Below are positions 18,742 to 39,248 of a DNA stretch of 48,610 nt, piece by piece (positions within the stretch are counted from its first letter, which is position 1; every line of letters begins with the position of its first letter). Source of the stretch: Promethearchaeota archaeon (lineage in GTDB: Archaea; Asgardarchaeota; Thorarchaeia; Thorarchaeales; Thorarchaeaceae); the NCBI GenBank assembly GCA_048939765.1, contig JBHLPF010000019.1, positions 26,234-74,843 of the forward strand, given 5' to 3'. Below the pieces are notes generated by a model, which saw only the letters and a program-made list of their open reading frames with translations, ran no database searches and had not been told where the DNA came from. Position numbers and translations under genes: made by a program.

Positions 18742-20043
18742 CTATTGAATGCCACACCACTCGAGCATGGTCTTTGCAATGACTTGAGACGTGTGCACAA
18801 TAGACTCAATGTTCACAAGTTCATCGAAGGAGTGGATTCTCTCGGCCAGGGGTCCACAGGTTATAGCAGGAATTCCATGATGCACAAAGTATCTTGTATC
18901 TAGACCCGATGAACCCCCAATGAAGTCTGGTTCCCGTCCAGCAACATGAATGATATTCCTTCTCACCAGTTGTACAAAGGCATTGTTTGCATCCAATTCG
19001 TGTGGCCGTGCTTTCCACCCAAACCAATCCACGACTGGAGGATTGTCCTTAAGCCACCCGTCTCCCTTTGCAGCTTCACGAATGGCATCCTCAACTTGTT
19101 TCATTACCTCTTCACGCGTTTCTCCAGGTGGAAATCCGATTCTACATTCTATCGTGCAGGAGCCAGGAACAGTGGATGGCCAATCACCAGCCCTGATGAC
19201 TCCAATATTGATCGTAGTGGCTCTTCCTTTCATTCTGGGATCTGTTTCGGCAAAGCTGTACCTTATTCTGGCTTGACGGTCTTCATGGAGTTTCTGTATA
19301 GCTGCTATTACTGGCATCATCTTCTGAACCGCATTCACGCCAAAATGGGCGGTGGCTGCATGCGCTGGCACACCTGGGACCGTCACTCGGAAATACATGA
19401 CTCCGGCACTAGCTAAGGTGATTGTGAGATTGCTTGGCTCTGGGACAAATGCTGCGTCGGTCTTAGGCCGTACCATTCTCATGTAGAGGACTCCTCCAAC
19501 CCCTCCGTCCTCCTCTTCGATGGTGGTTTCAACCTGGACATCGCCCTTCAACTTGATACCCTTCTGCTGAATCGCCTGTACGGCAAAAATCATGGCTGCA
19601 ACTCCCGCTTTCATATCGCCCGCGCCACGGCCATGAACATGGTTGTTAATGACGTCCCCCGACCAAGGATCGCGAGTCCATTTGTCCATCGGCTCTGGTG
19701 ATACGACATCTACGTGTCCGCTAAGGCAGATTGAGCGTCCGCCTCCCGCTCCCTTTAGAACTCCTCCTACATTAGGTCTGTTCTCGTACCCGTGCTTGAC
19801 AAAAGAGGTTGTTTCGAAGAAGTCCTTATGGCCCCGAAGTACTTTCTCATCAGGATTGAAGAAATCTGGATTAAGGGCCATCCGTTCTAGTTCTTTGTGC
19901 ACTCTTTTCTGAACTCCATATTCTTCTCCTGATATGCTGGGAATCCGCACCAAATCCTGTGTTAGATGTACGAGGCTCTCTTGATTCTCACTAATCCACT
20001 CTAGGATTGCGGTGGTCGTTGATTCATTCTGCTCATTTGCCAT
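18742..20043 (-). CDS. M20 family ArgE/DapE-like deacylase/amidohydrolase
   Basis: SGHVDVV, GRGAGDMKAG, IEEE, VPEP, AHAA, IHSFDE. ATG 20043 after AAGGA preferred over the 20181 ORF start. Confidence 0.9.
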   Translation of the reverse strand: MANEQNESTTTAILEWISENQESLVHLTQDLVRIPSISGEEYGVQKRVHKELERMALNPDFFNPDEKVLRGHKDFFETTSFVKHGYENRPNVGGVLKGAGGGRSICLSGHVDVVSPEPMDKWTRDPWSGDVINNHVHGRGAGDMKAGVAAMIFAVQAIQQKGIKLKGDVQVETTIEEEDGGVGGVLYMRMVRPKTDAAFVPEPSNLTITLASAGVMYFRVTVPGVPAHAATAHFGVNAVQKMMPVIAAIQKLHEDRQARIRYSFAETDPRMKGRATTINIGVIRAGDWPSTVPGSCTIECRIGFPPGETREEVMKQVEDAIREAAKGDGWLKDNPPVVDWFGWKARPHELDANNAFVQLVRRNIIHVAGREPDFIGGSSGLDTRYFVHHGIPAITCGPLAERIHSFDELVNIESIVHTSQVIAKTMLEWCGIQ

Positions 20044-20073
20044 TGATTCCTTCAGGCCTCCCTTTTCTCTCTC

Positions 20074-20213
20074 TGTACATACCCTTCGATTAAATCTGCT
20101 GTTCTTCTTCGAGATCTGAAATATGTACATGTTGGAACACAAAATCCCCCTGTATCTGCAGTACGGAGACCTTATGTTCACGCTCTCATGCTGGATACGC
20201 TATTGTGAACATA
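20074..20213. promoter_or_regulatory. Divergent promoter region (M20 gene / putative regulator) with TGWWCA hexamers and an inverted repeat
   Basis: TGTACA at 20074 and 20124. Minus-strand TGTTCC lies 10 bp from the 20124 copy. Inverted repeat TATGTTCAC (20173) ... GTGAACATA (20205). Confidence 0.45.
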
Positions 20214-20225
20214 CTTCTCGGGGCG

Positions 20226-21374
20226 ATGTTCATGGTCAAGGAACGAGGAAGATTATCAGACTCTGAGAGGCGACAGGGCACATCGTCGAGAGTGCATCTC
20301 CACACCACTATCTCTTCTGATGCACGCCAGTTGCTTCAAGATTTGGCTGGCGAAACTGGCCGTATAAATGATGTACTTGAAGATGCGGTCAATTTCTACA
20401 GCACTCGAAGAGAGATTCCAAGTTGTGACGAATGTGAGGCCATGGAAGTGTCAAGCCTTCGTAGGTCACTCATTGATTCTGCTGACATGGGTCTGGTGAG
20501 TTCCCAAGTTCTGTCAGTCCTTGCGCAGCTTGGATGTTCGGGTCAAGGCGCATCTGAACTAATCACTAGGCTGCAAAGAATCGGGCATCAGCATACTAAA
20601 CTGCTTCGCGGACTCGGAACTATCCCTCAGGAGATGTGGGGCAACTCCTTTGATTCATTCGTAAGTAATGTGAAGCTTTTGGAGAGAATGGGCATCTTTG
20701 GATCTGTAGAGATTCATCCTGAACGCAAGACTATCCTTGCAACGGCCAAGCTCATGCGTGAACAGCCAGAGATTCTCTTACTGATGCTCATTGCTGAATG
20801 GGATGAAGCAGGATATACGGTAGATGCCGAGGTTGTCGCCGAGAACAAAATTAGTGTGATGTGGGTTGACCCCCTCCTCTTTGACACAATCAAAGAAGAT
20901 CGCGATAAGCGGGTTATCAGTCTATGGCAGGAACGCAGAGAAGTCATGTTGATGCAAGCAGGCCAAAGCGGTGCTGTCACTTTGAGCCCTTCATTATTGG
21001 AATGGTTGTTGAATCATACAATCAAGGATGCGTTGGATGAAAGAACAGTTGTTAGTATTCGTGATCATATTGAACAAACAGATCCTCATGCGTCTGACAC
21101 TCCAACGAATATAGTTGACAGAGTGAAGCGGGTAGCATTGGGCGTTACTTCTCTTGGGCTCCTTGAGAAATGCGATGTACGATCTGAGAACGAGCTTACT
21201 CGAGTGCAACTTAGATCACGTACATCCTTCATGAAGGACTTGGGACTCAAGCTCCTCCTTGCACTACTACGATTTGAGGGCATTGACGAGTTCGCACGTG
21301 AAGAGGGTGTTTCAACTGCTGTTCTCTACTTTGGAGAGAAGCCTGAGATTGGCAGGAAATACCGTCTGGGTTAG
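20226..21374 (+). CDS. Hypothetical protein, putative transcriptional regulator (RHH-like N-terminus, CxxC, two repeated V4R-like domains)
   Basis: VHLHTTISSDARQLLQDLA...INDVLEDAVNFY fits a strand-helix-helix pattern. CDEC follows. Two similar blocks (LLERMGIFGSVEI / VTSLGLLEKCDV). Function is inferred. Confidence 0.5.
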   Translation: MFMVKERGRLSDSERRQGTSSRVHLHTTISSDARQLLQDLAGETGRINDVLEDAVNFYSTRREIPSCDECEAMEVSSLRRSLIDSADMGLVSSQVLSVLAQLGCSGQGASELITRLQRIGHQHTKLLRGLGTIPQEMWGNSFDSFVSNVKLLERMGIFGSVEIHPERKTILATAKLMREQPEILLLMLIAEWDEAGYTVDAEVVAENKISVMWVDPLLFDTIKEDRDKRVISLWQERREVMLMQAGQSGAVTLSPSLLEWLLNHTIKDALDERTVVSIRDHIEQTDPHASDTPTNIVDRVKRVALGVTSLGLLEKCDVRSENELTRVQLRSRTSFMKDLGLKLLLALLRFEGIDEFAREEGVSTAVLYFGEKPEIGRKYRLG

Positions 21375-21377
21375 TCA

Positions 21378-22757
21378 TCAATAGAGAAACTCGATTCCGA
21401 GATCAGAAACCTCCTTCTTCACCTTATGGTATATGTCAAAACATTCCTCTGAAGGCTCACCAGTCACTAAGTCACAGCAATCCTGGAAGCGTTTTCCTCT
21501 CGGAGGATCAGGGACCTTGTCAATGAACTTTGGCACAATCTTCTTCACAATCTCATTGGCATCAGATCTCTTGATGCCTGCAGATGCGTATGCCACCTCT
21601 GAGGCAAACATGGGTTCAATAGGTGTCAGATAGTCAAAGTACTTCCCCTTTGCCACGCCGCCCGTTTCTATTGAGGCTCCTGATGAAACGGTCGCAATGA
21701 ATTCGGCAGCAAACTCCTGCAACACCATCTCTGTGCAGGGTCCTGCTGCAGTATAGTTGTAGTAGAGTGCTGGTATCTTTGTGTTTCTGCTCACTGCCTG
21801 AGAATAGAGAGCTGCAAGCCAAATCAGTTCGGGTGATGAGCTTGATGTATATTTGATATGAATCGGAAAGAAGAGAGTCCAAGAGGCACCGTAGGTCAGA
21901 ATCCCTTGGATATGAAATGCCGTGCTCGTCACGGCTGTGCCTTCTGCTCCGCCTGCAAACCCTCCATAGATTGGACCATAGATGCCTGCAATTGGGACAT
22001 TCAACGACTGGAGCAAAGCTGCCCTGTTTAGGAGATCTAGGTCTGTTTTGAGTTCAGCCAGCTCTGCTATCATAAATCCATCAGTCTTCCGAAGACCAAA
22101 ATCTGGATGAAGGCCCGAAGCCAAGGCAATTGCTGACTCCGCAGTGCCAATCGCGTTCATAATGGGAAGTCCAGGCCGGCCCGCTCTTCTCAGAGCCTCT
22201 CTCCCCAATACAACTGTGCGAATTGAGCCTTCTATCTCAAGAGGTGATTTAGCCCGGATATTGGTGCCGTCAACAGAAAGCAAGCATGGAGTTGTGATGG
22301 CATTGGCAATAGGAATTCTCTTTGCATAATTCTCCACAAGACGCATGAAGATGCTCTCATCTGAGACAGTTACACCACCGGCTCCAGCGAATATCCATGG
22401 TTTTTCGTCGGAGTCTGGTTTCCTTGGCAGCAACGTTCTCTGTTCCATCCCTTCTCCTAGAACAGCTTGGTCAAAAGAGGTCTTCAGTTCTTGACGAACC
22501 TCCTTCTCTTCGAAGGCAATGATACGCTCGGTGTCTTTACAATATACCCCCACATCGCAGATGAGATCAAAGGCCGCTTTGAATACTGCGTCCGCAAGAC
22601 CATCATCTGATGGAACGAGAACCTCAGGGTCATAGCTGATGTCATACTCCTTCACAAGTTCGCGAACCCTCGGTGAGAAGACCCTCATGTCAAATTCCTT
22701 TTCTATGAGCGGCTTCCCATCATGTGCTCTCTTGGCAATCTCAATAATCGGAATCAT
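21378..22757 (-). CDS. mtmB: Monomethylamine:corrinoid methyltransferase (MtmB) homologue without pyrrolysine
   Basis: Full-length similarity to Methanosarcina MtmB as recalled: GVYCKDTERII, KSPLE, AGRPG, ELKTDLD, PIYGGFAGG, AGPCTEM, GKRFQDC, DLG. No in-frame TAG. AGGAGG upstream of ATG 22757. Confidence 0.9.
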   Translation of the reverse strand: MIPIIEIAKRAHDGKPLIEKEFDMRVFSPRVRELVKEYDISYDPEVLVPSDDGLADAVFKAAFDLICDVGVYCKDTERIIAFEEKEVRQELKTSFDQAVLGEGMEQRTLLPRKPDSDEKPWIFAGAGGVTVSDESIFMRLVENYAKRIPIANAITTPCLLSVDGTNIRAKSPLEIEGSIRTVVLGREALRRAGRPGLPIMNAIGTAESAIALASGLHPDFGLRKTDGFMIAELAELKTDLDLLNRAALLQSLNVPIAGIYGPIYGGFAGGAEGTAVTSTAFHIQGILTYGASWTLFFPIHIKYTSSSSPELIWLAALYSQAVSRNTKIPALYYNYTAAGPCTEMVLQEFAAEFIATVSSGASIETGGVAKGKYFDYLTPIEPMFASEVAYASAGIKRSDANEIVKKIVPKFIDKVPDPPRGKRFQDCCDLVTGEPSEECFDIYHKVKKEVSDLGIEFLY

Positions 22758-22761
22758 GAAT

Positions 22762-23409
22762 TCAGCCCCTCCTTTTCTCAATCAGCTGAGTTGCCACTCT
22801 CACAGCTTCAGGCGCCGTTTCAGCGAAACCGTCTGCCCCTATTTCATCAGCCCATTCTTGGTTAGTTGGACCTCCGCCTACCATGACAATGAATTTGTCT
22901 CGTTTCCCGGATTGCCTAAGATAATCAATAACATCCTTTTGTCCCCCAATTGTTGAGGTCATGAGTGCTGATATGGCAATTATGTCAGCCTTTATCTTCT
23001 CAGCCTCTTCGATAAACTTCGAAGTTGGAGCATCGACTCCTATGTCGCTCACCTCGAATCCATTGGCCACGAGGAGTGACTTGAAGATGTTCTTGCCAAT
23101 CTCGTGGATGTCACCTCGCACAGTGCCTACTACCACCTTGCCCTTTCTTGGGACATCTCCTGCTTCGATATGGGGTAGAACTACTTCTAATCCTGCCATC
23201 ATTGCTTCTCCTGAGAGCATTAGTTCAGTGAGGAATATCTCCATTCGTTCAAACTGCTCACCCACTATTCTTGCACCTTCAGAGATTCCTTGTTCCAATA
23301 TGTCAAGTGGCGCAGCACCAGACTCGATGGCTTCGGCAGAGAACTTCGAAACCGCCTCTGCATCACCTTCTATGACTGCTTGTTTCAGACTCTCAATTGC
23401 TTCGCTCAT
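22762..23409 (-). CDS. Cognate corrinoid (B12-binding) protein, MtmC/MtbC/MttC-like
   Basis: Cap domain (FLTELMLSGEAM), GDIHEIGKN (DxHxxG), SALMT, VMVGGGP, IGADG. Its stop lies 5 nt upstream of the mtmB-like start. Confidence 0.93.
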   Translation of the reverse strand: MSEAIESLKQAVIEGDAEAVSKFSAEAIESGAAPLDILEQGISEGARIVGEQFERMEIFLTELMLSGEAMMAGLEVVLPHIEAGDVPRKGKVVVGTVRGDIHEIGKNIFKSLLVANGFEVSDIGVDAPTSKFIEEAEKIKADIIAISALMTSTIGGQKDVIDYLRQSGKRDKFIVMVGGGPTNQEWADEIGADGFAETAPEAVRVATQLIEKRRG

Positions 23410-23439
23410 GGAACCACACTCAACTAATCCATTGGATTG

Positions 23440-23496
23440 ATTATTAGAATGAACATGATGAAAAGGACTGCCAACATGCGTGTACAATAGTGAACA
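23440..23496 (-). promoter_or_regulatory. Conserved regulon promoter element, copy C (upstream of corrinoid-mtmB)
   Basis: Minus strand TGTTCA-ctat-TGTACA-cgca-TGTTGGCA-N13-TGTTCA-ttc-TAATAA, with the same spacing as the copies at 31532 and 33459. Confidence 0.75.
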
Positions 23497-23526
23497 GATT
23501 ACCTCGCCTTTCTCACTCCTCAAATA

Positions 23527-24516
23527 CTAGTCCTCATGACAAGCAACTTGTCGTCCATCTGGCATTGTCTTCAATTCAGGCTCTTCAACGCTGCATTTCT
23601 CTTTCGCAAATGGGCACCTAGTATGAAATCTGCAACCTGTTGGAATGTCAATTGGACTCGGAATCTCCCCTGTAAGTAGGAGCCTCTCTCTCTGAACTCC
23701 AGTTTCAGGGACAGGAACGACTGAGACTAATGCTTTCGTGTAAGGATGACTTGGATTGTCGATAATATCCTTTGTAACTCCTGTTTCAACAACCCGGCCC
23801 AAGTAGGCAATTGCAATCCTGTCAGACATCTGCTTCGCTACTGCTAGATTGTGGGTTATCAGTACAAGCGTTATTCCTTTCTTCTCTTTCAGTTCTAGCA
23901 GCAACTTGAGAATCTGGCCCCTCATTGAAACATCAAGCATGGAAACCGGTTCGTCAGCGATGAGAAGGATAGGATCCAACACAAGTGCAGCTGCTACTGC
24001 TACACGTTGTCTTTGCCCCCCACTTAGTTCATGTGGAATTCTGCCCGCAAACTCCTTGGCGGGACGAAGCCCCACATCCTCGAGTGCAGTCATGACACGC
24101 TCCTCAACTTCGCTAGCGGATGCATAGACATTGTGAATCTTCAAAGGCTCTGCAATAATCTCCCCTATGGTCATGTTGTTACTCAGGGAGCCGTATGGGT
24201 CTTGAAAGATCATCTGAATCCTTCTTCGATACTCCTTGAACTTCCCCTCTTTCAACGCTGAGATTTTCTCTCCCTCGAACCAGATCTCTCCATCGGTCAA
24301 CGCTTCCAGTCGCATAATCAGTCTTGCAATTGTAGTCTTTCCGCATCCGCTCTCCCCTGCAATGGCAAAGACCTCGCCTTGGTTAACCTCTAGGTCGACT
24401 CCGTCAACGGCTCGAATATACATGTCGGATCTCTTTGAAATGAGGCTTGAGAGGAATCCAGCCCTGACTGTGAACCATTTCTTGAGATTCCTGGTTTCTA
24501 GGATTGCCTTCTGCAT
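23527..24516 (-). CDS. oppF: Opp/Dpp-type ABC ATP-binding subunit (OppF-like)
   Basis: GESGCGKTT, FQDPY, LSGGQRQR, IADEPVS, GCRFHTRCP. Confidence 0.92.
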   Translation of the reverse strand: MQKAILETRNLKKWFTVRAGFLSSLISKRSDMYIRAVDGVDLEVNQGEVFAIAGESGCGKTTIARLIMRLEALTDGEIWFEGEKISALKEGKFKEYRRRIQMIFQDPYGSLSNNMTIGEIIAEPLKIHNVYASASEVEERVMTALEDVGLRPAKEFAGRIPHELSGGQRQRVAVAAALVLDPILLIADEPVSMLDVSMRGQILKLLLELKEKKGITLVLITHNLAVAKQMSDRIAIAYLGRVVETGVTKDIIDNPSHPYTKALVSVVPVPETGVQRERLLLTGEIPSPIDIPTGCRFHTRCPFAKEKCSVEEPELKTMPDGRQVACHED

Positions 24517-25502
24517 CAGATCTCATTCCTCCTGAAGCAGGCAACTCTATGCCCTCCTTCGTCAATAAGAGGCGGGTCTCCAGTTCTGCAAATGTCGGCT
24601 GCATAATCGCATCTTGGATGGAAGTTGCATCCTACTGGAGGATCAATTAGGTCGGGGGGATTCCCAGGGATGAAATCTATCTCCTTGTCAGCGAGAATGC
24701 TTGGGAATGATGAAATGAGCTTTCTGGTATAGGGATGGGCTGGTTCGTTGAAAAGCACCTCCGCCGCAGCCTCTTCTACTATCTTTCCAGCATACATTAT
24801 GATTATCTTGTCACATGTTTCAGCTAGAACTGACAAGTCATGTGTTATAATCAGGAGAGATAGGCTCGTTCTTTGTCTGAGTTGCTTGAAGAGGTCAAGA
24901 ATCTGTGCTTGAATCATCACATCCAGTGCAGTAGTTGGCTCATCCGCAATAACAAGGGGTGGATGCAGCACAAGCGCGAGGGCAATCATAAGACGCTGTT
25001 TCATTCCTCCACTGAGTTCATGTGGATATGCTCTCGCACGCGATCTATCAATTCCCACGGATTCTATCAGTTCAAGTGCTATTTCTCTGGCTTTCTCTTT
25101 TGGCATACGCTGATGGATTTGTATTGCATTGACCATCTGGTCAATTACACGATGCACTGGATTCAGCGAGTTCATAGCTCCCTGGAAAACCATTGAAATT
25201 TCCTGCCAACGAAATGCCTGTATCTCCTTTGTCTTCATAGTGAGAATATCACGGTTGTTGAAGAGAGCCTGCCCCCCTTCAATGACGCCCTCTCTTGGGA
25301 GAATCTTCAACAATGTCATTGCAGTGGTCGTCTTTCCGCAGCCGCTTTCCCCGCTTAGACCTACAAACTCTCCACAATTCACGGCAAAGTCGATATCATC
25401 GACTGCTTTGACAATTCCTTGGGATATGTGATAGTATACCTTCAGGCCAGAAACCTTGAGTAGTGCCTGTCCAGCAGGGACTTGTGAAGATGCTTCAGTC
25501 AT
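24516..25502 (-). CDS. oppD: Opp/Dpp-type ABC ATP-binding subunit (OppD-like)
   Basis: GESGCGKTT, LSGGMKQR, IADEPTTALD, GCNFHPRC. Confidence 0.92.
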   Translation of the reverse strand: MTEASSQVPAGQALLKVSGLKVYYHISQGIVKAVDDIDFAVNCGEFVGLSGESGCGKTTTAMTLLKILPREGVIEGGQALFNNRDILTMKTKEIQAFRWQEISMVFQGAMNSLNPVHRVIDQMVNAIQIHQRMPKEKAREIALELIESVGIDRSRARAYPHELSGGMKQRLMIALALVLHPPLVIADEPTTALDVMIQAQILDLFKQLRQRTSLSLLIITHDLSVLAETCDKIIIMYAGKIVEEAAAEVLFNEPAHPYTRKLISSFPSILADKEIDFIPGNPPDLIDPPVGCNFHPRCDYAADICRTGDPPLIDEGGHRVACFRRNEI

Positions 25503-25510
25503 TTAACTCA

Positions 25511-30361: not shown

Positions 30362-30418
30362 TGTACACCAATTAAAATCCACCGAACACTCTTGTTCATA
30401 GTGCACTAGTCATGAACA
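30362..30418 (-). promoter_or_regulatory. Variant of the regulon element upstream of the SBP/ABC operon
   Basis: Minus strand TGTTCA(30418), TGAACA(30398), TGTTCG(30388), TGTACA(30367), giving spacings of 20, 10 and 21 nt. The last two spacings match the full copies. Confidence 0.55.
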
Positions 30419-30461: not shown

Positions 30462-31454
30462 TCACTTTCTCAGTCTATCAGCGATGACTGCAATCATAAG
30501 GGTGGCCATAATAGCTGCTAGGCCAAGAGCAGGGTCAATTTCCATCGGAGGCAATGTGGGACTGGGTTCTGCTGTAGTTGTCGAAGAAGATGTAGTCGTA
30601 GAAGATGTCGTTGCAGTTTCAAATCCATTTTCGGAAAGCCAGAGCCCGATTTGTAGCATCATGTTCCATTCTGATCCCTCATCATCATACACATTATCCC
30701 ATGCCACCCCGTCTCGGTCAGCATCCTCTTCCCATTCAACGTGGGGACCCGAAAGAACTATCCGCCCCTGGCCATACTCATAGGATATTATAGCTGGCTC
30801 ATCATTGACATCGTACGTGGCGATAACATTCACTCCGTCTGTTCCGGCGGTTTCAAAATATGGTCCACCGTAGTACATCACAGTGTGAGAGTCTGGCTCT
30901 CCAGATAGATCCATTTCAGTGACCGCCTTGTTCAGGATTATCCTTGTCATGTTATGACCTGGCCAGGCTGCAATTTCTTCTATGGGTCCTATGCCCAGAT
31001 TCGGGTAAAGGTCAAGTGAATATCCAATGTTTCCGCCCTCCCATCTAATGTTGTCACACGCAAAGTAAGCCCCAGCACAGACTCCAAAAAAGGCTCCTCC
31101 ATTCTCAACAAAGTTCCGTATCCTAACGACCCCCGAATTGGTGAGGTCTTGAAAATACGACCACGCCCATCCTCCTGGTATGGCAATGATGTCATAATCA
31201 ACAAGTATGTCATTTCTAATGTCTGCAGCAGTCACGACATCAACTGTAGCGTTCATCCATCTAAACATCCAGAAGAGAGCTGTGCGACTTGAAAGACTAG
31301 ATGATTGTTCATCGGTTACGCCTTCATAGACAGCCACCTTGATTCCAGTCAGGTCGGTTGGTTGAACTTCGTCTGAATACGCGGGATTCGCAACAGCCAA
31401 TGTCACAAAGAGAAGTGTAACTACCATGACAATTGGTCTGCGATTGCGTTTCAT
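30462..31454 (-). CDS. Secreted, membrane-anchored BPL-N / class I glutamine amidotransferase-like hydrolase
   Basis: Signal peptide, IAIPGG, GVCAGAY (nucleophile elbow Cys), YYGGP, SGPHVE (His-x-Glu), Ser/Thr linker and C-terminal TM. Confidence 0.8.
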   Translation of the reverse strand: MKRNRRPIVMVVTLLFVTLAVANPAYSDEVQPTDLTGIKVAVYEGVTDEQSSSLSSRTALFWMFRWMNATVDVVTAADIRNDILVDYDIIAIPGGWAWSYFQDLTNSGVVRIRNFVENGGAFFGVCAGAYFACDNIRWEGGNIGYSLDLYPNLGIGPIEEIAAWPGHNMTRIILNKAVTEMDLSGEPDSHTVMYYGGPYFETAGTDGVNVIATYDVNDEPAIISYEYGQGRIVLSGPHVEWEEDADRDGVAWDNVYDDEGSEWNMMLQIGLWLSENGFETATTSSTTTSSSTTTAEPSPTLPPMEIDPALGLAAIMATLMIAVIADRLRK

Positions 31455-31531: not shown

Positions 31532-31588
31532 TGTTCAGTGTTGAACATCCATGTTGGCACCTTTCTTTAGATTGTTCACACTCTATAA
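31532..31588 (+). promoter_or_regulatory. Conserved regulon promoter element, copy A (upstream of first M28 gene)
   Basis: TGTTCA-gtgt-TGAACA-tcca-TGTTGGCA-N13-TGTTCA-cact-CTATAA, ending 38 nt before ATG 31626. Confidence 0.75.
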
Positions 31589-31625: not shown

Positions 31626-33428
31626 ATGGTTGAGAAGACATCCATCTCAGAGATAAGAAAGACCATCGAGCATCTTTGCGCTTTTGGACAGAAGGTTGCA
31701 GGAACAAAAGCGGAGGTCCAAGCTGCAGACTTCCTATATGACAGTCTTGTGAATTTTGGTTTCACGGATGTTGAGAAGCAGCCATTTGATGTTGTCGGAT
31801 GGGATCCACAAACATGTAAGGTGAAGACATCCAAGCCCGTTGAAAGAGAATTGGAATGTGCCCTGTTTCCACATGGGAAATCTGAGTCAGTCGAAGGATT
31901 GCTAGCCCCTGTTGATCGGGAAACCAATGAAGATGATCCAAATTCATCTTCGGTTGGAAAGGGGCTGATCGGTTTCACTGAATGGGGACCTGATACTTAC
32001 CTCAGCCCGAGATTCACCTACTACCGCGCTGCGAAACTGGGCTATAAGGGCTTGATTGTGGCAGCACCAGATGAAGGCGATATGCTGAAAGTTGTAGTAA
32101 TTCCTGAGAGATTCCTCAAAATCCCAGTTGTTTGTATCACAAAAGAAGAGGGAGATTCTCTCCGCTCAATGATGAATGATGGCGAAGTGATGGTGAGAAT
32201 TGAAACCGAAGTTGAAGCAACAGAACGACTGGACTCTCATAATGTGGTTGCGATTCTTGAGGGCGATGGAACAACTGATGAAGAAGTCGTGGTAGGAGCA
32301 CATTATGACTCATGGTTCCAAGGAGCAGCTGATAATTGCGCTCAGGCAGCAATTGTGCTCGAACTGGCGAGGATATTTCAGGATCAAGCCAAGCTGGGCA
32401 AGGTTCCCAAGAGAACCATACGATTCCTTTTCTATGGTGCTGAGGAGAGTGGATCTGATGATTTCTACTTCTGGCTGAATGGATCAAAAGCCTATGTTAG
32501 AGATAACAGAGAATCAGTAGGCAGGACTGTTGCAGTATTGAGTTTGGACTCTACAGGATATCCTCACCCATCAGCAGACTACATTTTTGCCACTGGAGAA
32601 ATGCTTGGATTCGCCAAATCCTTGACTGTAGAGCATGGAAGAGCCCGTTCCTTGACATTTAAAATCCCACCCAGCTATGGCAGTGACCACTGGTTCTTTG
32701 AATTAGAAGGAGTCCCTACAATATACGGTGTTTCAGGAGTCCCATCAGAACATGGCATAGCTCAACCAAGCCCATTGTATCACACGACAAAGGATGATCC
32801 CGACCATTTGGACTATGATGCTTTGCAGTTCTATGCAGAGTTCATGAAGAACGCGCTTCACTATCTCGCAGACGCAGATGTGTTACCAATAGATATCTCC
32901 GTACCACTTGAAAGATTTGAATCAATTCTCTCAAAATACGACGAAATGGAAGGAAACGAATTTGACCTAAAGCCACTAATTGCCAAGGTGAGGGACTTGA
33001 TGAACTTCCAACCCTCCCTGAAGAAGATAGTCGAAGATTGTGAATATGATTACGCCCCTCTGATAAACGAGTTTCTCTTGAAAGCGACTAGGGGATTCAA
33101 TCGTACTATTGGATGGAACACCCGTCCGATAGAAACATACAGCATTAACTATCTATATCGCCTTGAGATGATTGAAGACTATATCCATCTCACAAATGCC
33201 ATTGCGAGCATACGAAACATCCCAGTAGCTACTTTCGATCGAGATTCTGCAAAGAGAATCGAGTCAAAGCCTGACAATCCCTACAATTGGCTAAGAATTC
33301 ATGACTCTCTTGCAAATATAGAAAAAGAACGCGCCAGAATTGGCAAAGAGATTGAGAAGGAGCTAGAGAATCTATCAACAATGTTAGGTAGCGTATCTGA
33401 GGACCTAAGCAAGTTGATGGGAAACTAG
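31626..33428 (+). CDS. M28 family metallohydrolase with PA-like insertion (paralogue 1, complete metal ligands)
   Basis: GAHYDS, GAADN, GAEESG, LSLDS, SDH, YHTTKDD. ATG 31626 preferred because the 31551 start lies inside the promoter element. Confidence 0.88.
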   Translation: MVEKTSISEIRKTIEHLCAFGQKVAGTKAEVQAADFLYDSLVNFGFTDVEKQPFDVVGWDPQTCKVKTSKPVERELECALFPHGKSESVEGLLAPVDRETNEDDPNSSSVGKGLIGFTEWGPDTYLSPRFTYYRAAKLGYKGLIVAAPDEGDMLKVVVIPERFLKIPVVCITKEEGDSLRSMMNDGEVMVRIETEVEATERLDSHNVVAILEGDGTTDEEVVVGAHYDSWFQGAADNCAQAAIVLELARIFQDQAKLGKVPKRTIRFLFYGAEESGSDDFYFWLNGSKAYVRDNRESVGRTVAVLSLDSTGYPHPSADYIFATGEMLGFAKSLTVEHGRARSLTFKIPPSYGSDHWFFELEGVPTIYGVSGVPSEHGIAQPSPLYHTTKDDPDHLDYDALQFYAEFMKNALHYLADADVLPIDISVPLERFESILSKYDEMEGNEFDLKPLIAKVRDLMNFQPSLKKIVEDCEYDYAPLINEFLLKATRGFNRTIGWNTRPIETYSINYLYRLEMIEDYIHLTNAIASIRNIPVATFDRDSAKRIESKPDNPYNWLRIHDSLANIEKERARIGKEIEKELENLSTMLGSVSEDLSKLMGN

Positions 33429-33458
33429 GGGACCAGGCAGAAAGTCGTCTAGAGATAA

Positions 33459-33515
33459 TGTTCATTGATGTTCAACAGTGTTGGCACTCTTCTTATGGTT
33501 GTTCATTCCTTAAAT
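33459..33515 (+). promoter_or_regulatory. Conserved regulon promoter element, copy B (upstream of aminotransferase operon)
   Basis: TGTTCA-ttga-TGTTCA-acag-TGTTGGCA-N13-TGTTCA-ttc-CTTAAAT. Confidence 0.75.
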
Positions 33516-33586
33516 CAATGGAGCAGAGACGCTCGCATCCACATTGAATTCAAGCTCGACTCGGAGCGTCATGGAGAGATTTTGTA

Positions 33587-34882
33587 ATGGTAGATAGAGC
33601 TGAAATAATAGAGAAAGAGTCCAAGTACATGGTCCCCGCATATGCTCGCAAACCCATAGTCATCTATGAGGGGAAAAACACCATTGTACGCGATCTTGAC
33701 GGAATGGAGTACATTGATTGTATTAGTGGAATCTCGGTTGTGAATGCAGGTCACAGTCCAGAAAGGATTGTAAAAGCAGGAGCGGAGCAACTATCGAAGC
33801 TAATTCACTGTTCTGGGCTCTACCACAATGTTCCTCAAACATTGCTGGCTGAGAAACTGGCTGGGGTCACACCAGACAACCTAACAAAATCATTCTTCTG
33901 CAACAGCGGCGCCGAGGCTGTTGAGGGGGGTGTCAAGATTGCTAAGAAGTATAGCGTGACTCAGGGCCGTACAGGTGCCGGTGTCATTGCATTGGAGGGC
34001 TCCTTCCATGGCCGACTCAGCCTCTCACTAACACTCACTGGGCAATCAAAGTACAAGCATGGCTTTGGGACCTTTGCCAATGCTCCCGGTGTTGTGCATG
34101 CTCCAATGCCGTATTGCTATAGATGCCCGCTTGAATTTCCTGACTGTAACACCGAATGTGCAAGAAGAGTCGAGGACATCATCAAGTATCATACCACAGG
34201 CGATGTTGCAGCCATGATTGTTGAGCCAATCTTAGGTGAGGGCGGCTTGGTGGTGCCGCCAAAGGAGTATCATGATCTGGTGCAAGAGATATGCAAAGAG
34301 CACAATATTGCCTACATTGCTGATGAAGTCCAAACTGGCTTTGGAAGAACAGGAAAGATGTTTGCAATCGAAGAGTTCGGAATCAAGCCTGATATCCTCA
34401 CAATGGCAAAGGGATTGGGTGCAGGGATGCCGATTGGCGGCTATATCACTACAGACGAGATTGCGGACTGTCTAGAGTCAGGTGATCACTTCTCAACCTT
34501 TGGCGGGAATCCTGTTTGCTGCGCTGTGGCTCTAGAGAATCTCAACTATCTTGAGGATGCAGGGCTGGTAAAGAATTCGGAGAAGATTGGCGGCAGTCTG
34601 ATGAGACAATTAGAGGAGGTTCAAGAGCGCAGCAAACACATTGGTGAAGTTCGAGGAAGAGGACTCATGATAGGCATCGAGCTGGTGAAAGACACAGACA
34701 CAAAGGAACCAGCGGTTGATGAAACACAAGCAGTAGCCAAGAATCTCATGAAGAATGGTGTCTTGGTTGGAACAGGCGGAGTAAAGAAGAATGTGATTCG
34801 TCTTCAGCCTCCGCTATGCATGACTGAAGAGGAATCTCAGAAAGTGCTGAGCCTGCTCGAAAAGGAATTCAAGCAGCTGTAG
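33587..34882 (+). CDS. Class III PLP aminotransferase (ornithine/4-aminobutyrate/diamine transaminase-like)
   Basis: NSGAEAVE, SFHGR, EPILGEGG, DEVQTGFGRTG, MAKGLG, STFGGNP. Confidence 0.92.
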   Translation: MVDRAEIIEKESKYMVPAYARKPIVIYEGKNTIVRDLDGMEYIDCISGISVVNAGHSPERIVKAGAEQLSKLIHCSGLYHNVPQTLLAEKLAGVTPDNLTKSFFCNSGAEAVEGGVKIAKKYSVTQGRTGAGVIALEGSFHGRLSLSLTLTGQSKYKHGFGTFANAPGVVHAPMPYCYRCPLEFPDCNTECARRVEDIIKYHTTGDVAAMIVEPILGEGGLVVPPKEYHDLVQEICKEHNIAYIADEVQTGFGRTGKMFAIEEFGIKPDILTMAKGLGAGMPIGGYITTDEIADCLESGDHFSTFGGNPVCCAVALENLNYLEDAGLVKNSEKIGGSLMRQLEEVQERSKHIGEVRGRGLMIGIELVKDTDTKEPAVDETQAVAKNLMKNGVLVGTGGVKKNVIRLQPPLCMTEEESQKVLSLLEKEFKQL

Positions 34883-34884
34883 CG

Positions 34885-36684
34885 ATGCTTGGAGGCTATG
34901 GTGTGGAGAATCCTTCGCTCGATAGGATTAAAGCTACTATGACTGACCTACATTCCATTGGAAATAAGATAGCTGGATCGCCCAATGAGCGTCGTGCCTC
35001 TGAGTACATTATTGAATGTCTTCGTGGATTTGGTTATGAAGAAATAGAAACCATGACTTTCGAGATCCGTGGATGGAATCCCAACTCTTGCAGCATCAAA
35101 ATTCTAAAACCAATTGAGAAGGAAATCGAGGCCGCTCTCTTTCCATACTCTCAGAGCCTAAGAACCATAGGGAAGTTGACACAGATAAGTCAGATAGACG
35201 AATACGAAACCAACAATGATGGTGCCTCAATAGGGCTGTCTGATTGGGGCCCTCACCTCTATTTGTCTCCTTCACGCACCTACTACAGAGCCATACGACG
35301 AGGGCTAGATGCAGTTCTAGTTTCAACTCCTGATGAAGGAGATCTTCGCAAAGTGGTGGTAGTCGAATCCGGTAGACTGCTGAAGATTCCTGTCATAAGC
35401 ATCTCAAAGGAAGATGGCGATTTCCTTCTGAGCCTCCTAGAGAAGAATGAGGTCGAGTTGGAAATTGATGCGGACGTCGATATCCCCAATACTGCAGAGT
35501 CAATGAACATAGAAACCGTGCTAAAAGGGCAAGAGCAAGAGATCTCCGAACATGAAATCTTTGTGGGGACTCATGTTGATAGCTGGTTTACTGGGGCTGC
35601 AGATAATTGCGCTCCTGTAGCTATTTTTCTGGAGATTGCCAGGCTACTCCAGGAACATGTTCAGAATGGCGGTATATTGAAGAGAAGTGTGAGATTCTTC
35701 TTCTTTGGTGCAGAAAATGGTGGAAGTGAGGGGTTCTACAACTGGTGCAATGGTTCCAAGGTGTATTGGGACCAGAATCAAAGCGTATCCAAGACTGTAG
35801 CAGCATTTCTGAGCCTTGATTCAGTCGGATTCCCAGAGCCTGCTGCAAGATTCATAGGCACGACTGCAGACTTGCTTCAATTTGCTAAGGGCATTGAATC
35901 TGCAGACAACGCCATTCGAGGATTCGAGTTTTATGATCCTCCAGGGTATGGTAGTGACCACTGGTTCTTTGAGATTTCAGGGGCGCCGACAATTTACGGA
36001 GTTACATTTCCAAGTCATCTTTACCAAACCCAAAAGGATGACCTTGACCACATTGACTACAGTGCAGTTATGCGCTATGCAAAATTCATGAACGATGCGC
36101 TCATCAAATTAGCAAATGCAAGTCTGCTGCCAATCGACATATTCACTCCGTTGATGAGATTCGAAACTATTCTCTCCAAATACAACAAGATGAGAGGCTG
36201 TCCTTTTGACATGACACAGCAGCTACTTCGGATTAGAGATATCCGAACAAAGAAGAGTCATTTCAACAAGAAGCTGAACTCTATTTCCAAGAAGGGAAAT
36301 CATAAGCAAATCCAGAATGCAAATCGGTTTCTCAGCTCAGTGGCTCATCTCATCAACACCACTGTTGGATGGCTATGGAGGGTGACAGCTCCTGATGATG
36401 TTGACTACTTGTCAAGGTTGGAGCTAATTGAAGACTATGTTGCGCTTAATGCCGCTATAATGGCACTAAGAGGCACTCCTGTGGGCAGTCTTACTCCCGA
36501 GTATATTGACAAATATGAGAGCCAATCTGACTTGGCCTATAACTGGTTACCAATACACAAGCCTCTGGTCAAGCTTGAGAGAGAGCGATCCAATGTCTAC
36601 AGGCTCATCGAAAAGGAGCTTGAACTCATTTCAAAGATTCTGACTATGGTAGAGAAGGGAATTAGCGAATTACTAGTTGAATAA
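34885..36684 (+). CDS. M28 family metallohydrolase-like protein (paralogue 2, two metal ligands substituted)
   Basis: Colinear with 31626..33428 (WGP..YLSP, GAADNCA, LSLDS.G, YGSDHWFFE, RLE.IEDY, YNWL.IH), but GAEE is GAEN and YHT is YQT. Confidence 0.82.
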   Translation: MLGGYGVENPSLDRIKATMTDLHSIGNKIAGSPNERRASEYIIECLRGFGYEEIETMTFEIRGWNPNSCSIKILKPIEKEIEAALFPYSQSLRTIGKLTQISQIDEYETNNDGASIGLSDWGPHLYLSPSRTYYRAIRRGLDAVLVSTPDEGDLRKVVVVESGRLLKIPVISISKEDGDFLLSLLEKNEVELEIDADVDIPNTAESMNIETVLKGQEQEISEHEIFVGTHVDSWFTGAADNCAPVAIFLEIARLLQEHVQNGGILKRSVRFFFFGAENGGSEGFYNWCNGSKVYWDQNQSVSKTVAAFLSLDSVGFPEPAARFIGTTADLLQFAKGIESADNAIRGFEFYDPPGYGSDHWFFEISGAPTIYGVTFPSHLYQTQKDDLDHIDYSAVMRYAKFMNDALIKLANASLLPIDIFTPLMRFETILSKYNKMRGCPFDMTQQLLRIRDIRTKKSHFNKKLNSISKKGNHKQIQNANRFLSSVAHLINTTVGWLWRVTAPDDVDYLSRLELIEDYVALNAAIMALRGTPVGSLTPEYIDKYESQSDLAYNWLPIHKPLVKLERERSNVYRLIEKELELISKILTMVEKGISELLVE

Positions 36685-36686
36685 AG

Positions 36687-37586
36687 GTGATGAAAATGGA
36701 AAGACGTCTAGGAGTTGCCGGACTACAGCTAGAGAAAGATCCATACGATGAAGACAAGAATTTCAGCAATCTTGAACAAACAGCTAAGTGGGTAAGGAAA
36801 ACATATCCTTGGGTTGACCTGGTCTTCACAGGAGAGCTATATCTACAACAGTATGGGATAGATGATTGGAAAGATATGGCTCAACCAATGCCAAATAGCA
36901 TGACGGAAAAGCTTTCAGAAATCGCCAAGGATACTGAATGCTGGTTCGTTCCGGGTTCATTTCTGGAACAGGATGGTAGTAAGATATTCAATACAGCCAT
37001 TGCATTCAATCCAAAAGGTGAGCTTGTGGCAAAATATAGAAAGATCTATCCTTGGATGCCTTTTGAAGATACAAATTTCGGGACGGATTTCGTGACTTTT
37101 GATATTCCAGGAATCGCGAGAGTGGGTCTTGTTATCTGCTATGACTTGTGGTTTCCTGAGATATTCAGAACGCTAGCATGGATGGGTGCTGATGTCATTC
37201 TCCAGCCGTCTGCGACCTATACACCTGACCGACAAGCAGAGTTGATTCTCGTACCTGCTCAAGCAATCATGCACCAATGCTATGTCCTCAACTCGAATGT
37301 TGTTAGTTCCAAAGGCGGAGGACTCTCCATATTCGCAGATCCTGAAGGCAGGGTATTGCAGCAGGTTGGCACGCATGAGGAGATTATGACAGAGGTCATT
37401 GACCTGGATAAGGTCGCTTGGATTCGTCAGAATGGGTCATTTGGTATAACGCCGCTTTGGAAAAGTCTCAGGGATTCTCCTCTCAACATGAAGTTCCCGG
37501 TCTATGAGAGGTTCGAGGAAGGAGAGATTCTCAAAACATTAGGTGAATTGAAGGTTCAGAAGAGCATCCGTGAGTGGAAAGTCTAG
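36687..37586 (+). CDS. Carbon-nitrogen hydrolase (nitrilase/amidase family)
   Basis: Glu-Lys-Cys triad: GELY, YRKIYPW, ICYDLWFPE. Confidence 0.9.
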   Translation: MMKMERRLGVAGLQLEKDPYDEDKNFSNLEQTAKWVRKTYPWVDLVFTGELYLQQYGIDDWKDMAQPMPNSMTEKLSEIAKDTECWFVPGSFLEQDGSKIFNTAIAFNPKGELVAKYRKIYPWMPFEDTNFGTDFVTFDIPGIARVGLVICYDLWFPEIFRTLAWMGADVILQPSATYTPDRQAELILVPAQAIMHQCYVLNSNVVSSKGGGLSIFADPEGRVLQQVGTHEEIMTEVIDLDKVAWIRQNGSFGITPLWKSLRDSPLNMKFPVYERFEEGEILKTLGELKVQKSIREWKV

Positions 37587-37641
37587 GATGACTCAGTAAT
37601 GCGATATGCTTTTCGCTGACCAATGTGATTGAAGAACTTGA

Positions 37642-38484
37642 ATGGAGGAAGAATCGATTATGGAGTGGAAAAATGGAGCGAAATGCGCAGTTTGCTTGAC
37701 CTTTGACCTTGATGCAGATATTTCTTGGCGAAATATCTTGAAACGCAATAAGATTGAACGTGATAATCCAGTAGTTCTCTCACTTGGGCAATACGGTCCA
37801 AGAGCGGCGCTTCCACGCATACTGAGGCTTCTGGACAAACACAATATGAAAGCATGCTTCTATATTCCTGGGGAAGTGGCTGAACGTTATCCTGATAGTG
37901 TGAAGGATATCGCCAGTCAAGGTCATGAGATTGGGCATCATGGCTACTCTCATCGGAATCCAGCTAGCCTTGGCATTAAAGAGGAACGTGAGGAGCTTGA
38001 GAAGGGCTTTGCAGCTTTAGACTCACTGATTCCAGAGAGACCCCAAGGCTATCGTGCACCAGCCACAGACATGAGCGAAAACACATACTCGCTCTTAGCT
38101 GAGCATGGTTTAATGTATGATAGCACAATGATGGGAGATGACCTTCCCTATATCGTAGACGTGGGCGGAAAGAGGATGGTTGAGCTTCCCTTCAAGTGGA
38201 TACTGGACGACTGGGCATTCTTTGGTTTCAATTACTTTCCGCCTCTTGAGTATCAAAGTGGCATCGACAGCCATAGGAAAGTGTACGATATCTGGTATGA
38301 TGAGTTTGAGGCTGTCTATGAGGAGGGTCTCTACATGATGCTCGTGATGCATCCTCAAATCATGGGTGTCCCTTCGAGAGCCAAGATGCTTGAGAATCTG
38401 ATTATCAAGATGAAGACTGATGGAGATGTCTGGATGGCAACTCCCCTAGACGTTGCTAAGTTTTGGCTCCAGCAGGAGGACTGA
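37642..38484 (+). CDS. CE4 polysaccharide-deacetylase-like amidohydrolase (PuuE/HpPgdA-like)
   Basis: TFDLD, YGPRAALPRIL, EIGHHGYSH, GYRAP, YDST, MHPQ. No signal peptide. Confidence 0.88.
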   Translation: MEEESIMEWKNGAKCAVCLTFDLDADISWRNILKRNKIERDNPVVLSLGQYGPRAALPRILRLLDKHNMKACFYIPGEVAERYPDSVKDIASQGHEIGHHGYSHRNPASLGIKEEREELEKGFAALDSLIPERPQGYRAPATDMSENTYSLLAEHGLMYDSTMMGDDLPYIVDVGGKRMVELPFKWILDDWAFFGFNYFPPLEYQSGIDSHRKVYDIWYDEFEAVYEEGLYMMLVMHPQIMGVPSRAKMLENLIIKMKTDGDVWMATPLDVAKFWLQQED

Positions 38485-38489
38485 GAGAA

Positions 38490-39248
38490 GTGGGGCGACT
38501 TGAGAATAGGATAGCAGTCATAACTGGAGTAAGTGCAGGAATTGGTCGCGCGTCTGCCCTATTGTTTGCAGAGGAGGGAGCTACCGTTGTTGGAGCCGAC
38601 ATAGATGAAATTCAAGGCGGTGAAGTCGAAGCTGCGATTCGAGAGGCCGGAGGCATGGCCCACTTCGTAAAAGCTGATGTGTCCAGACAAGAGGATGTCG
38701 TGAAAGTCTTTGCAAAAACAAACGAACTTGGTGGAGTCGATGTCCTCTTCAACAATGCAGGCGTGGAGGTCGTGAAGAGTCTGCAAGATACAACTGAGGA
38801 GGAGTGGGATAGGTCAGTCAGTGTCAATCTGAAGTCAGTCTATCTGTGTATCAAGCATGCTCTTCCACAAATGGAAAAGAAGGGAAAGGGCGTAATAATC
38901 AACAACTCATCGGCAGCTGGCCTAGTTGGTTCATTCTCTCCAAGCTACTCAGCAGCGAAAGGTGGAATTATCTCCCTTACAAAGGCACTCGCTGTGGACC
39001 TGGGTTCCAGTAATGTTAGGGTCAACTGCATTTGCCCAGGAGCAATTGAAACACCGATGTTAGAAAGAGTGATCAAAATGCAGGGGGATCCGAAAGAGGT
39101 TCGATCGCGACGATTGAAGAACTACCCTGTTGGCCGCTTTGGTACCTCTGAGGAAGTCGCATACACTGCACTGTTCTTGGCTTCAGATGAGTCGTCTTTC
39201 ATCACAGGAGCTGTTCTGCCTGTGGATGGCGGTTTTACATCTCGCTAG
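38490..39248 (+). CDS. Short-chain dehydrogenase/reductase
   Basis: TGVSAGIG, NNAG, YSAAK, VNCICPG, VDGG. GTG at 38490 follows GGAGG. Confidence 0.92.
   Translation: MGRLENRIAVITGVSAGIGRASALLFAEEGATVVGADIDEIQGGEVEAAIREAGGMAHFVKADVSRQEDVVKVFAKTNELGGVDVLFNNAGVEVVKSLQDTTEEEWDRSVSVNLKSVYLCIKHALPQMEKKGKGVIINNSSAAGLVGSFSPSYSAAKGGIISLTKALAVDLGSSNVRVNCICPGAIETPMLERVIKMQGDPKEVRSRRLKNYPVGRFGTSEEVAYTALFLASDESSFITGAVLPVDGGFTSR

Follow-up and report, generated by a model that had tools for sequence, protein, structure and literature searches.

We analysed a 48,610-nucleotide (nt) stretch of DNA from a Promethearchaeota archaeon of the order Thorarchaeales (GCA_048939765.1, contig JBHLPF010000019.1, positions 26,234 to 74,843 of the forward strand; hereafter the window), belonging to a genome of 3.37 Mb that is 88.5% complete. 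Positions 18742-39248 of the window hold a gene cluster that a first-pass annotation had proposed as a candidate for an undescribed regulon devoted to import, deacylation, corrinoid-dependent demethylation and transamination of an N-methylated or N-acylated amine. Assigning families with Pfam and using the most likely gene starts, we recovered every gene named in that annotation, and the six C-N hydrolase genes that it had placed in five families agreed with the Pfam assignments. At the left end of the cluster the genes for an M20 deacylase of the ArgE/DapE family (18742-20043, minus strand; Peptidase_M20 and M20_dimer; 433 amino acids (aa) from the ATG at 20043, the open reading frame (ORF) extending to 20181) and for a putative regulator of 382 aa, designated REG (20226-21374, plus strand; no Pfam or NCBIfam match), are divergent. 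The minus strand then carries genes for a pyrrolysine (Pyl)-free MtmB-family methyltransferase (MT1; 21378-22757, 459 aa; PF05369, 324.5 bits, full length), an MtmC-like corrinoid protein (22762-23409, 215 aa; B12-binding and B12-binding_2), the ATPases OppF (23527-24516) and OppD (24516-25502; ABC_tran and oligo_HPY in both), a fused OppBC permease (25511-28231, 906 aa; BPD_transp_1 twice and OppC_N in a single polypeptide), a surface-anchored family-5 solute-binding protein (28326-30320; SBP_bac_5, 6.6e-53) and a surface-anchored class I amidotransferase-like cysteine hydrolase of the BPL_N family (30462-31454; PF09825). The plus strand continues with a metallopeptidase-like protein with a C-terminal coiled coil (M28a, 31626-33428; Peptidase_M28, 3.4e-32), a class III pyridoxal phosphate (PLP) enzyme (AT3, 33587-34882; Aminotran_3, 3.8e-119), a second M28 protein (M28b, 34885-36684; Peptidase_M28), a nitrilase-superfamily amidase (CNh, 36687-37586; CN_hydrolase), a CE4 amidohydrolase (37642-38484; Polysacc_deac_1) and a short-chain dehydrogenase/reductase (SDR, 38463-39248; adh_short_C2). 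Searches of NCBIfam returned zero matches for the MtmB homologue, REG, the BPL_N protein and M28b.

The transcription units of the cluster share a promoter element of 47 nt, TGTTCA-N14-TGTTGGCA-N13-TGTTCA, whose hexamers start at positions 1, 11, 21 and 42 and in which the last two hexamers enclose a T-rich, TATA-like stretch. Exact matches are located at 23450-23496 on the minus strand, ending 40 nt before the MtmC ATG at 23409 (copy 1), at 31532-31578 on the plus strand before M28a (copy 2) and at 33459-33505 on the plus strand before the PLP-enzyme operon (copy 3); the first two hexamers of copy 2 form a palindrome facing the divergent amidotransferase-like gene. A degenerate fourth copy (30362-30408, minus strand), ending 41 nt before the binding-protein GTG at 30320, keeps hexamers 2-4 as TGAACA-N4-TGTTCG-N15-TGTACA. 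The three exact copies are the only ones in the 3.37-Mb genome, all inside the cluster, and no further site was found in that genome when up to three mismatches in the 20 specified positions were allowed, a threshold at which we estimate that fewer than 0.3 sites would be expected by chance; the shared element reported by the first-pass annotation is thus private to the cluster. The position of hexamers on both sides of a TATA-like box fits a putative operator that would control access of the basal factors, by repression or activation alike. On the M20 side, a TGTTCC-N4-TGTACA sequence (minus strand, approximately 20125-20140) resembles the first two hexamers of the element only.

Copies 1-3 are kept at the orthologous promoters in all Thorarchaeial relatives. 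The full element (two mismatches at most) occurs at the binding-protein promoter of the relative G012 (CP070761), where its position was checked, and copies of the same type lie close to the binding-protein gene in G031 and G074 and probably in G057 and G084. The gene order of the window is kept in relatives with a 95% identical MtmB, whereas in those with 88% identity CoA-transferase genes are inserted and the CE4-SDR pair is relocated, and in a relative with 73% identity the order is thoroughly shuffled with the gene set unchanged. The grouping of these genes goes beyond chance: the same set recurs in relatives in a changed order. In the closed 3.2-Mb genome CP070761 the order is SDR-CE4, M20-M28b-AT3, M28a, CNh-BPLN, SBP-OppBC-OppD-OppF, REG and RACo-MtrH-MtmB-MtmC, and its five element copies genome-wide all fall within one 17-kb cluster, heading the AT3 operon, M28a, CNh-BPLN, the binding-protein and Opp genes, and MtmC-MtmB-MtrH-RACo. 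In the closed genome CP070658, MtmC-MtmB-REG are found at 0.71 Mb, and M28a, AT3-M28b-CNh-M20, BPLN and SBP-OppBC at 2.09 Mb, 1.38 Mb from the methyltransferase pair; the three copies of the element in this genome nevertheless stand before MtmC, the AT3 operon and M28a, which is what a split regulon looks like. The reversed pattern, used as a control, had 0 matches in both closed genomes and in all of the 87 genomes surveyed below. The CE4-SDR pair adjoins the cluster in five arrangements, while in CP070658 the CE4 gene lies at a third site without the element, and we regard CE4 and SDR as looser associates of the regulon. The flanking genes TauE, DUF1614, PEMT and HD were rejected as members, being conserved only in the closest relatives or nowhere. 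In the 88% lineage the inserted genes encode two CoA-transferase subunits (PF01144; L006/L007, 12604-14330) between REG and CE4-SDR, which hints at an organic-acid product of the pathway that is activated by CoA transfer.

The same rearrangements bear on two related explanations, namely that the corrinoid pair runs in reverse and uses methyl-tetrahydromethanopterin to methylate an amine, or that the genes are neighbours by common descent and have no joint function. In principle, corrinoid methyl transfers can proceed either way, and close relatives do share the DUF1614, PEMT and HD flanks by descent alone. However, the element and the membership survive at least five gene orders and the 1.38-Mb split, whereas the flanking genes are lost beyond the closest relatives; the binding-protein-dependent ABC system is of the importing kind and the remaining regulon is hydrolytic, and we consider either explanation very improbable. 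Support for the proposed single, co-regulated catabolic unit comes instead from the private element, from a gene membership that outlasts rearrangement and splitting, and from the co-occurrence of the regulator and the element with MtmB.

This co-occurrence was surveyed in 87 species-level Thorarchaeia genomes. The MtmB homologue is present in 17 of them (4 of 17 genera), REG in the same 17 and in G027, and the element in these 18 as well as in G031, G072 and G074, so that all 18 genomes with REG carry the element; the contigs of G031 and G074 end inside the cluster. Both MtmB and REG are absent from all 66 element-less genomes of the survey. It follows from the patchy occurrence within four to six genera that the regulon was repeatedly gained or lost as a unit. 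Taken together, the in silico support for a regulon in a subset of Thorarchaeia is strong.

REG stands beside MtmB at every Thorarchaeial locus. Aligned homologues share a strand conserved as RVHLHTT(I/V)S, two helices after it and a CxxC that is invariant; judged by this alignment the N-terminus may be ribbon-helix-helix (RHH)-like, with no Pfam match and a predicted local distance difference test (pLDDT) value below 50 over residues 1-87 of the AlphaFold2 (AF2) model. In the same monomer model (pLDDT 65 overall), residues 85-217 match Bet3/TRAPP (Z 7.2-7.7), H-NOX (Z 6.9) and, weakly, the DmpR sensor, while the top Foldseek matches of REG are de novo designed proteins with poor template modelling (TM) scores. 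We take a small-ligand sensor domain (Bet3/V4R/H-NOX-like) combined with a ferredoxin-like domain as a lead only. An inverted pair TGTTCAC...GTGAACA (20176-20212) and another TGTTCA overlap the REG start region (20170-20235), which suggests that REG may regulate itself through hexamers at its own start.

The MtmB homologue matches PF05369 with an E-value of 1.5e-96 over profile positions 3-450 of 450, and the Methanosarcina barkeri MtmB structure 1L2Q with 1.2e-65 over residues 17-465. Its ORF contains zero in-frame TAG codons, and Pyl202 of the M. barkeri enzyme aligns with Met208 of the ORF (ATG at 22158-22160); all of 14 homologues of 44-100% identity have this Met and the Asn that follows. 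A search of the window genome, which is 88.5% complete, found no PylS. A whole-genome search found no second MtmB homologue, and the closest matches are proteins from Thorarchaeota metagenome-assembled genomes. The corrinoid protein carries the DxHxxG motif as DIHEIG, its gene ends 4 nt before the MtmB start, and the two are paired in all relatives examined. The earlier description of a Pyl-free MtmB homologue with its corrinoid partner therefore holds, by the full-length family match, the lack of in-frame TAG and the Met at the Pyl position. Homologues of MtmB that lack Pyl number more than a thousand; among 1,061 MtmB sequences with and without Pyl gathered in a recent study, one non-Pyl member has a known substrate, MtqB of Methanococcoides methylutens Q3c, the first Pyl-free MtmB to be given a function; it acts on tetramethylammonium and choline, has low activity with monomethylamine and shows an active-site signature of a conserved Met/Cys together with aromatic residues, and its authors describe the other Pyl-free MtmBs, the Asgard ones included, as "of unknown function" (PMC13044021, 2026).

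The first-pass annotation had expected the second methyltransferase and the activase to be encoded elsewhere. The window indeed contains no MtrH, URO-D-type or RACo gene, and matches were found on other contigs of the same genome; they are of the MtrH and RACo types, not of the MtbA/MtaA type. In CP070761 MtmC-MtmB-MtrH-RACo form one operon, and MtrH and RACo also adjoin MtmC-MtmB in Bathyarchaeial relatives (about 62% identity). The window genome has an MtrH-RACo-corrinoid operon with no MT1 alongside (L123, C21:39400-43000), whose MtrH and RACo are orthologues of those of CP070761 (61% and 55% identity), and which could be a common back end for the several corrinoid systems of this genome; the genes flanking this operon encode a PAS histidine kinase and a 4Fe-4S protein. 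In addition, the genome encodes an acetyl-CoA synthase subunit (CdhC/ACS), eight URO-D paralogues, none of them linked to the cluster, and a Pyl-free MttB homologue, which has a corrinoid protein of its own. All four components of a corrinoid system (MT1, corrinoid protein, MT2 and reductive activase) are thus encoded in the window genome, the MtrH type suggesting that methyl groups probably go to tetrahydromethanopterin or folate for the Wood-Ljungdahl pathway, rather than to coenzyme M.

The synteny check suggested along with the first-pass annotation succeeded within Thorarchaeia, where the gene set recurs, but the full cluster was not found outside this group. The Bathyarchaeial relatives have MtmC-MtmB only, with or without MtrH-RACo. 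Relatives in Thermoplasmata keep MtmC-MtmB as well, and the hydrolases occur at none of about 52 loci; a different family-5 binding protein is found at about 7 of these 52, and an MttB homologue and a pterin-binding methyltransferase lie near some. At one of the Thermoplasmata loci (L095, OY970070: 257153-278535) a 44%-identical MtmC-MtmB lies beside an unrelated family-5 binding protein, OppB, and an OppC that has PKD domains; the locus further encodes a PAS/GAF histidine kinase and a second corrinoid protein, as well as a Pyl-free MttB homologue and a pterin-binding methyltransferase. By its gene content this locus is a putative independent link between a Pyl-free MtmB and family-5 importers.

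The importer of the window cluster is a complete Opp/Dpp-type system by Pfam: besides the family-5 binding protein there are two permease domains and two ATPases that carry oligo_HPY. The permease has about 12 or more membrane spans predicted from hydropathy, and its OppBC fusion is kept in relatives at 906-910 aa. In the binding protein a signal peptide and a Thr/Pro linker are accompanied by a membrane anchor at the C-terminus. The first-pass annotation had relied on the premise that importers of the Opp type carry peptide-sized solutes, which proved unsafe: a second family-5/Opp system in the same window (6107-12156; binding protein 6107-8092, ATPases 8374-10207, permeases 10214-12156) lies between genes for a GH116 beta-glucosidase (3591-6053) and a GH94 phosphorylase (12195-14561), and Opp-type therefore does not equal peptide cargo here. 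Archaeal family-5 systems often carry sugars, and the second locus (3591-14561) is likely, judging by its genes, to serve the uptake of beta-glucan, cellodextrin or chitobiose; an AsnC/Lrp regulator is encoded near it at 14813-15319. The cargo of the cluster's own importer could accordingly be something other than a peptide, either an oligosaccharide derived from chitin or peptidoglycan, with CE4 as its deacetylase, or a metal or metallophore complex, the link to MtmB then being indirect. Besides the neighbouring sugar-associated system, this would agree with the best NCBIfam matches of the binding protein, which are of the NikA, Opp4A and CntA types and all far under the cut-offs, and with the presence of chitin and peptidoglycan deacetylases in the CE4 family. 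Yet no glycoside hydrolase, sugar kinase or phosphorylase belongs to the regulon in any arrangement seen, the partner enzymes are all of peptidase or amidase types, the CE4 protein has no signal peptide and also matches PuuE allantoinase-type proteins, and the importer retains the element or hydrolase adjacency in every genome examined. We therefore hold a non-peptide cargo to be improbable and favour the import of an amide-bonded nitrogen compound.

The proposal that the substrate is trimmed outside the cell stands for one enzyme only. The sole extracellular products of the cluster are the binding protein and the amidotransferase-like protein, which combines a signal peptide and a Ser/Thr linker with an anchor at the C-terminus; signal peptides are absent from both M28 proteins and from M20, CNh, CE4 and the PLP enzyme. 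In the amidotransferase-like protein C126 (GVCAGAY), H238 and E240 (GPH-x-E) are invariant in 11 orthologues. A search of the PDB by sequence found nothing for it, but its AF2 model (pLDDT 78.6) has a flavodoxin-like fold with a Cys-His-Glu triad, and the top Foldseek matches of the model are Pdx2/YaaE, HisH and TrpG (E-values of 1.6e-9 to 1e-7, TM 0.75-0.80). It is most likely an active glutaminase-type cysteine hydrolase of the cell surface, as predicted from the invariant Cys and GPH-x-E motif and from a model that matches glutaminase subunits.

Among the predicted intracellular enzymes, M20 scores above the cut-off of the DapE-ArgE subfamily model TIGR01910 with no equivalog (NCBIfam), has the putative acetylornithine deacetylase 3pfo as its best PDB match and is part of the aminotransferase operon in other Thorarchaeia. 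The ligand motifs of M28a (H, D, EE, D, H) are complete, its best PDB match being the aminopeptidase 2ek8, with a weak match to glutamate carboxypeptidase II; M28b is its paralogue (43% identity), with EN where M28a has EE. CNh contains the Glu, Lys and Cys (CYD) motifs and is nearest in the PDB to the omega-amidase Nit2 (2w1v, 8.3e-30), followed by archaeal nitrilase and beta-ureidopropionase-like proteins. The closest PDB entry for CE4 is the polysaccharide deacetylase 3rxz (function unstated), ahead of Helicobacter pylori PgdA and PuuE allantoinase-type proteins. The matches of CNh, CE4 and M20 point to small N-acyl, N-carbamoyl or glutamyl-amide compounds as possible substrates, none of which they name. 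The class III family of the PLP enzyme was correctly recognised earlier, but its role as an aminotransferase is less certain: its nearest solved relatives are the gamma-aminobutyrate (GABA) aminotransferase-like protein 7vno of Pyrococcus horikoshii, isoleucine 2-epimerase, broad-specificity racemases and GABA and acetylornithine transaminases, no NCBIfam equivalog was reached, and it may be an aminotransferase or an amino-acid racemase or epimerase. A class III aminotransferase domain also occurs elsewhere in the window, in a 1022-aa fusion (372-3440) with an APH-type kinase and an M23 peptidase domain (a PRK06148-like architecture, NCBIfam), which we take to resemble the kinase and phospho-lyase pairs acting on hydroxylysine or ethanolamine.

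Reading the observed gene content, localisation, catalytic motifs, common element and co-inheritance together, we consider it fairly probable that the regulon is one inducible pathway which imports an amide-bonded, methyl-bearing nitrogen compound, hydrolyses it and relays the methyl group from the Pyl-free MtmB; the biochemistry of every step, which way the flux runs and what kind of substrate is used are what we infer from these data. In such a pathway the private regulator, with its RHH-like head and sensor-like domain, would bind the TGTTCA-type hexamers bracketing the TATA-like box at four promoters. Outside the cell, the membrane-anchored glutaminase-type hydrolase would cleave one amide bond, and the anchored binding protein would pass the solute to the fused OppBC/OppDF importer. 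Inside, the two M28 proteins, M20, the Nit2-like amidase and CE4 would cut the remaining C-N bonds, and the PLP enzyme and SDR would work on the amino-acid skeleton. The MtmB homologue would methylate Co(I) of its corrinoid partner with a methyl group, probably N-bound, which the MtrH-type methyltransferase would move to tetrahydromethanopterin or folate for the Wood-Ljungdahl pathway, RACo re-reducing the corrinoid when oxidised.

Several observations weigh against this interpretation. No enzyme of the cluster reaches an NCBIfam equivalog cut-off, and the PDB and NCBIfam matches of the binding protein are only distant, to peptide-, nickel- or opine-binding proteins, none of them near a cut-off. 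REG is connected with the element by co-occurrence only, and the 87 genomes are mutually related, their phyletic counts not being counts of independent events. The only characterised Pyl-free MtmB has substrates, tetramethylammonium and choline, neither of which requires amidases. Furthermore, two genomes, G048 and G081, contain an importer and hydrolase island without MtmB, regulator or element, and G027 (85% complete) contains the importer, the hydrolases, one element and a regulator with an in-frame TGA, with no MtmB found. At the G027 locus (L109, G027:C12:18000-37900) the TGA-interrupted REG abuts OppF and MtmC-MtmB are missing from that position; this locus may represent a regulon in decay or a variant without MtmB.

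The islands of G048 and G081 (L121, G048:C15:8000-27900; L122, G081:C12:93000-112900) encode the importer, BPLN, AT3, CNh, an N-terminal nucleophile (Ntn) AAT/CBAH hydrolase, Amidohydro_3, M28, M20, CE4 and SDR, with up to eight different C-N hydrolases per cluster. The Amidohydro_3 protein may be of the D-aminoacylase type, which is known from members of that family. A 339-aa ORF that ends an MtmB-less island was rejected as a relative of REG (hhalign probability 0.1). The importer, the surface amidotransferase-like protein, AT3, CNh, M20, CE4 and SDR of these islands are of orthologous grade (35-76% identity) and lie in similar operons; they differ from the window cluster in the added Ntn (AAT/CBAH) and Amidohydro_3 genes, in the single M28, and in having no MtmC-MtmB, REG or element. 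The hydrolases are therefore independent of the demethylase. Thus the earlier picture of a regulon that includes demethylation is right as to shared control, but not as to its core: since related Thorarchaeia carry the island without MtmB, regulator or element, the amide-catabolic island would seem to be older and self-standing, with demethylation as an add-on. MtmC-MtmB, REG, the promoter design and the second M28 appear to mark a derived variant, plausibly adapted to a methylated form of the substrate.

These islands and the G027 locus also speak for two functions under one switch, in which the island would serve N-acylated or D-amino-acid peptides, e.g. of necromass or cell-wall origin, and MtmB/MtmC would act on a separate methylated amine; in a variant of this explanation the pair would demethylate not the imported backbone but methylamine that an amidase frees from N-methyl amides, gamma-glutamylmethylamide for example. 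The low monomethylamine activity of MtqB (PMC13044021) is in line with it. The closeness of CNh to the Nit2 omega-amidase and the glutaminase-like nature of the surface enzyme would fit the release of an amine from a glutamyl amide, and a D-amino-acid substrate would fit the racemases among the relatives of AT3 and the Amidohydro_3 genes of the variant islands. On the other hand, methylamine activation without pyrrolysine is chemically hard, the regulon has no separate transporter for small methylamines, and the pair shares its private promoter design and regulator with the hydrolases even where they are 1.38 Mb apart, which argues for one inducer and one pathway. We judge two separate functions to be rather unlikely, and retain the single pathway with an amide-bonded, methyl-bearing substrate.

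As for that substrate, the suggestion of methyl-lysine, ornithine or polyamine derivatives made in the first-pass annotation is a guess. We also tried creatinine/N-methylhydantoin, anserine, N-methyl-lysine, gamma-glutamylmethylamide, methylated pyrimidines and N-acetylglutaminylglutamine amide (NAGGN), each of which fits some of the genes and none all of them. Tentatively, and with more doubt than confidence, the Thorarchaeial Pyl-free MtmB could be a corrinoid methyltransferase for N-methyl amino acids (or N-methyl peptides or amides) that forms, with its importer and amidases, a hitherto unknown oxygen-free route feeding methyl groups to the Wood-Ljungdahl pathway, with sarcosine- or N-methyl-aminoacyl compounds, N-epsilon-methyl-lysine, methyl-histidine dipeptides and gamma-glutamyl-methylamide as candidate substrates and N-methylated peptide-like necromass or osmolyte compounds as candidate sources. 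If true, this would be the second function assigned among Pyl-free MtmB proteins and the first outside quaternary amines.

We found no literature account of the cluster, the regulator or the promoter element, in keeping with the earlier designation of the regulon as undescribed; papers on Asgard and Thorarchaeia metabolism touch MtmB or MtrAH in passing only (PMC9723677, PMC9635834). The regulon provides a concrete handle on the substrate of a large MtmB-type family of almost unknown function: the question narrows to what a single binding protein binds, what a single regulator responds to and which compounds of a panel a single methyltransferase accepts. In Asgard archaea of anoxic sediments, methyl groups of organic nitrogen would by this route enter the acetyl-CoA pathway without methanogenesis. 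Moreover, the element and REG are a candidate for a ready-made regulator/operator pair, rare for studies of transcription control in Asgard archaea.

The architecture of the corrinoid system is a known one, here in a new regulatory and catabolic setting. The Pyl-dependent MtmB/MtmC of M. barkeri (1L2Q/1NTH) belongs to the same Pfam family over its full length and has an adjacent His-on corrinoid protein, but its UAG-encoded pyrrolysine is an invariant Met in the Thorarchaeial enzyme, and the downstream acceptor differs. MtqB/MtqC likewise consists of a Pyl-free member of the MtmB family and a dedicated corrinoid protein; however, MtqB functions in a methanogen with an MtbA/MtqA-type methylcobamide:CoM methyltransferase, whereas here MtrH/RACo are the partner, in an organism that has the acetyl-CoA pathway and is not a methanogen. 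The substrates of MtqB require no hydrolases, whereas the Thorarchaeial gene shares its regulation with an Opp-type importer and six amidohydrolases. The importer resembles the Opp/Dpp/Gsi systems with family-5 binding proteins in its SBP_bac_5 protein, two permease domains and two ATPases with an oligo_HPY tail, and differs from them in the fusion of the permeases (906 aa), in an archaeal-style binding protein anchored by a C-terminal helix and in a cargo that is not necessarily a peptide. The four-component demethylases, such as the glycine-betaine MtgB system and bacterial O-demethylases, are matched by the single CP070761 operon of MT1, corrinoid protein, MT2 (MtrH) and RACo, and in both the methyl group presumably passes to a pterin carrier for the Wood-Ljungdahl pathway. 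Unlike in those systems, the Thorarchaeial MT1 is of the MtmB family rather than MttB or MtvB, the MT2 and activase of the window genome are unlinked and without the element, and the module sits within a hydrolase and importer regulon with its own regulator.

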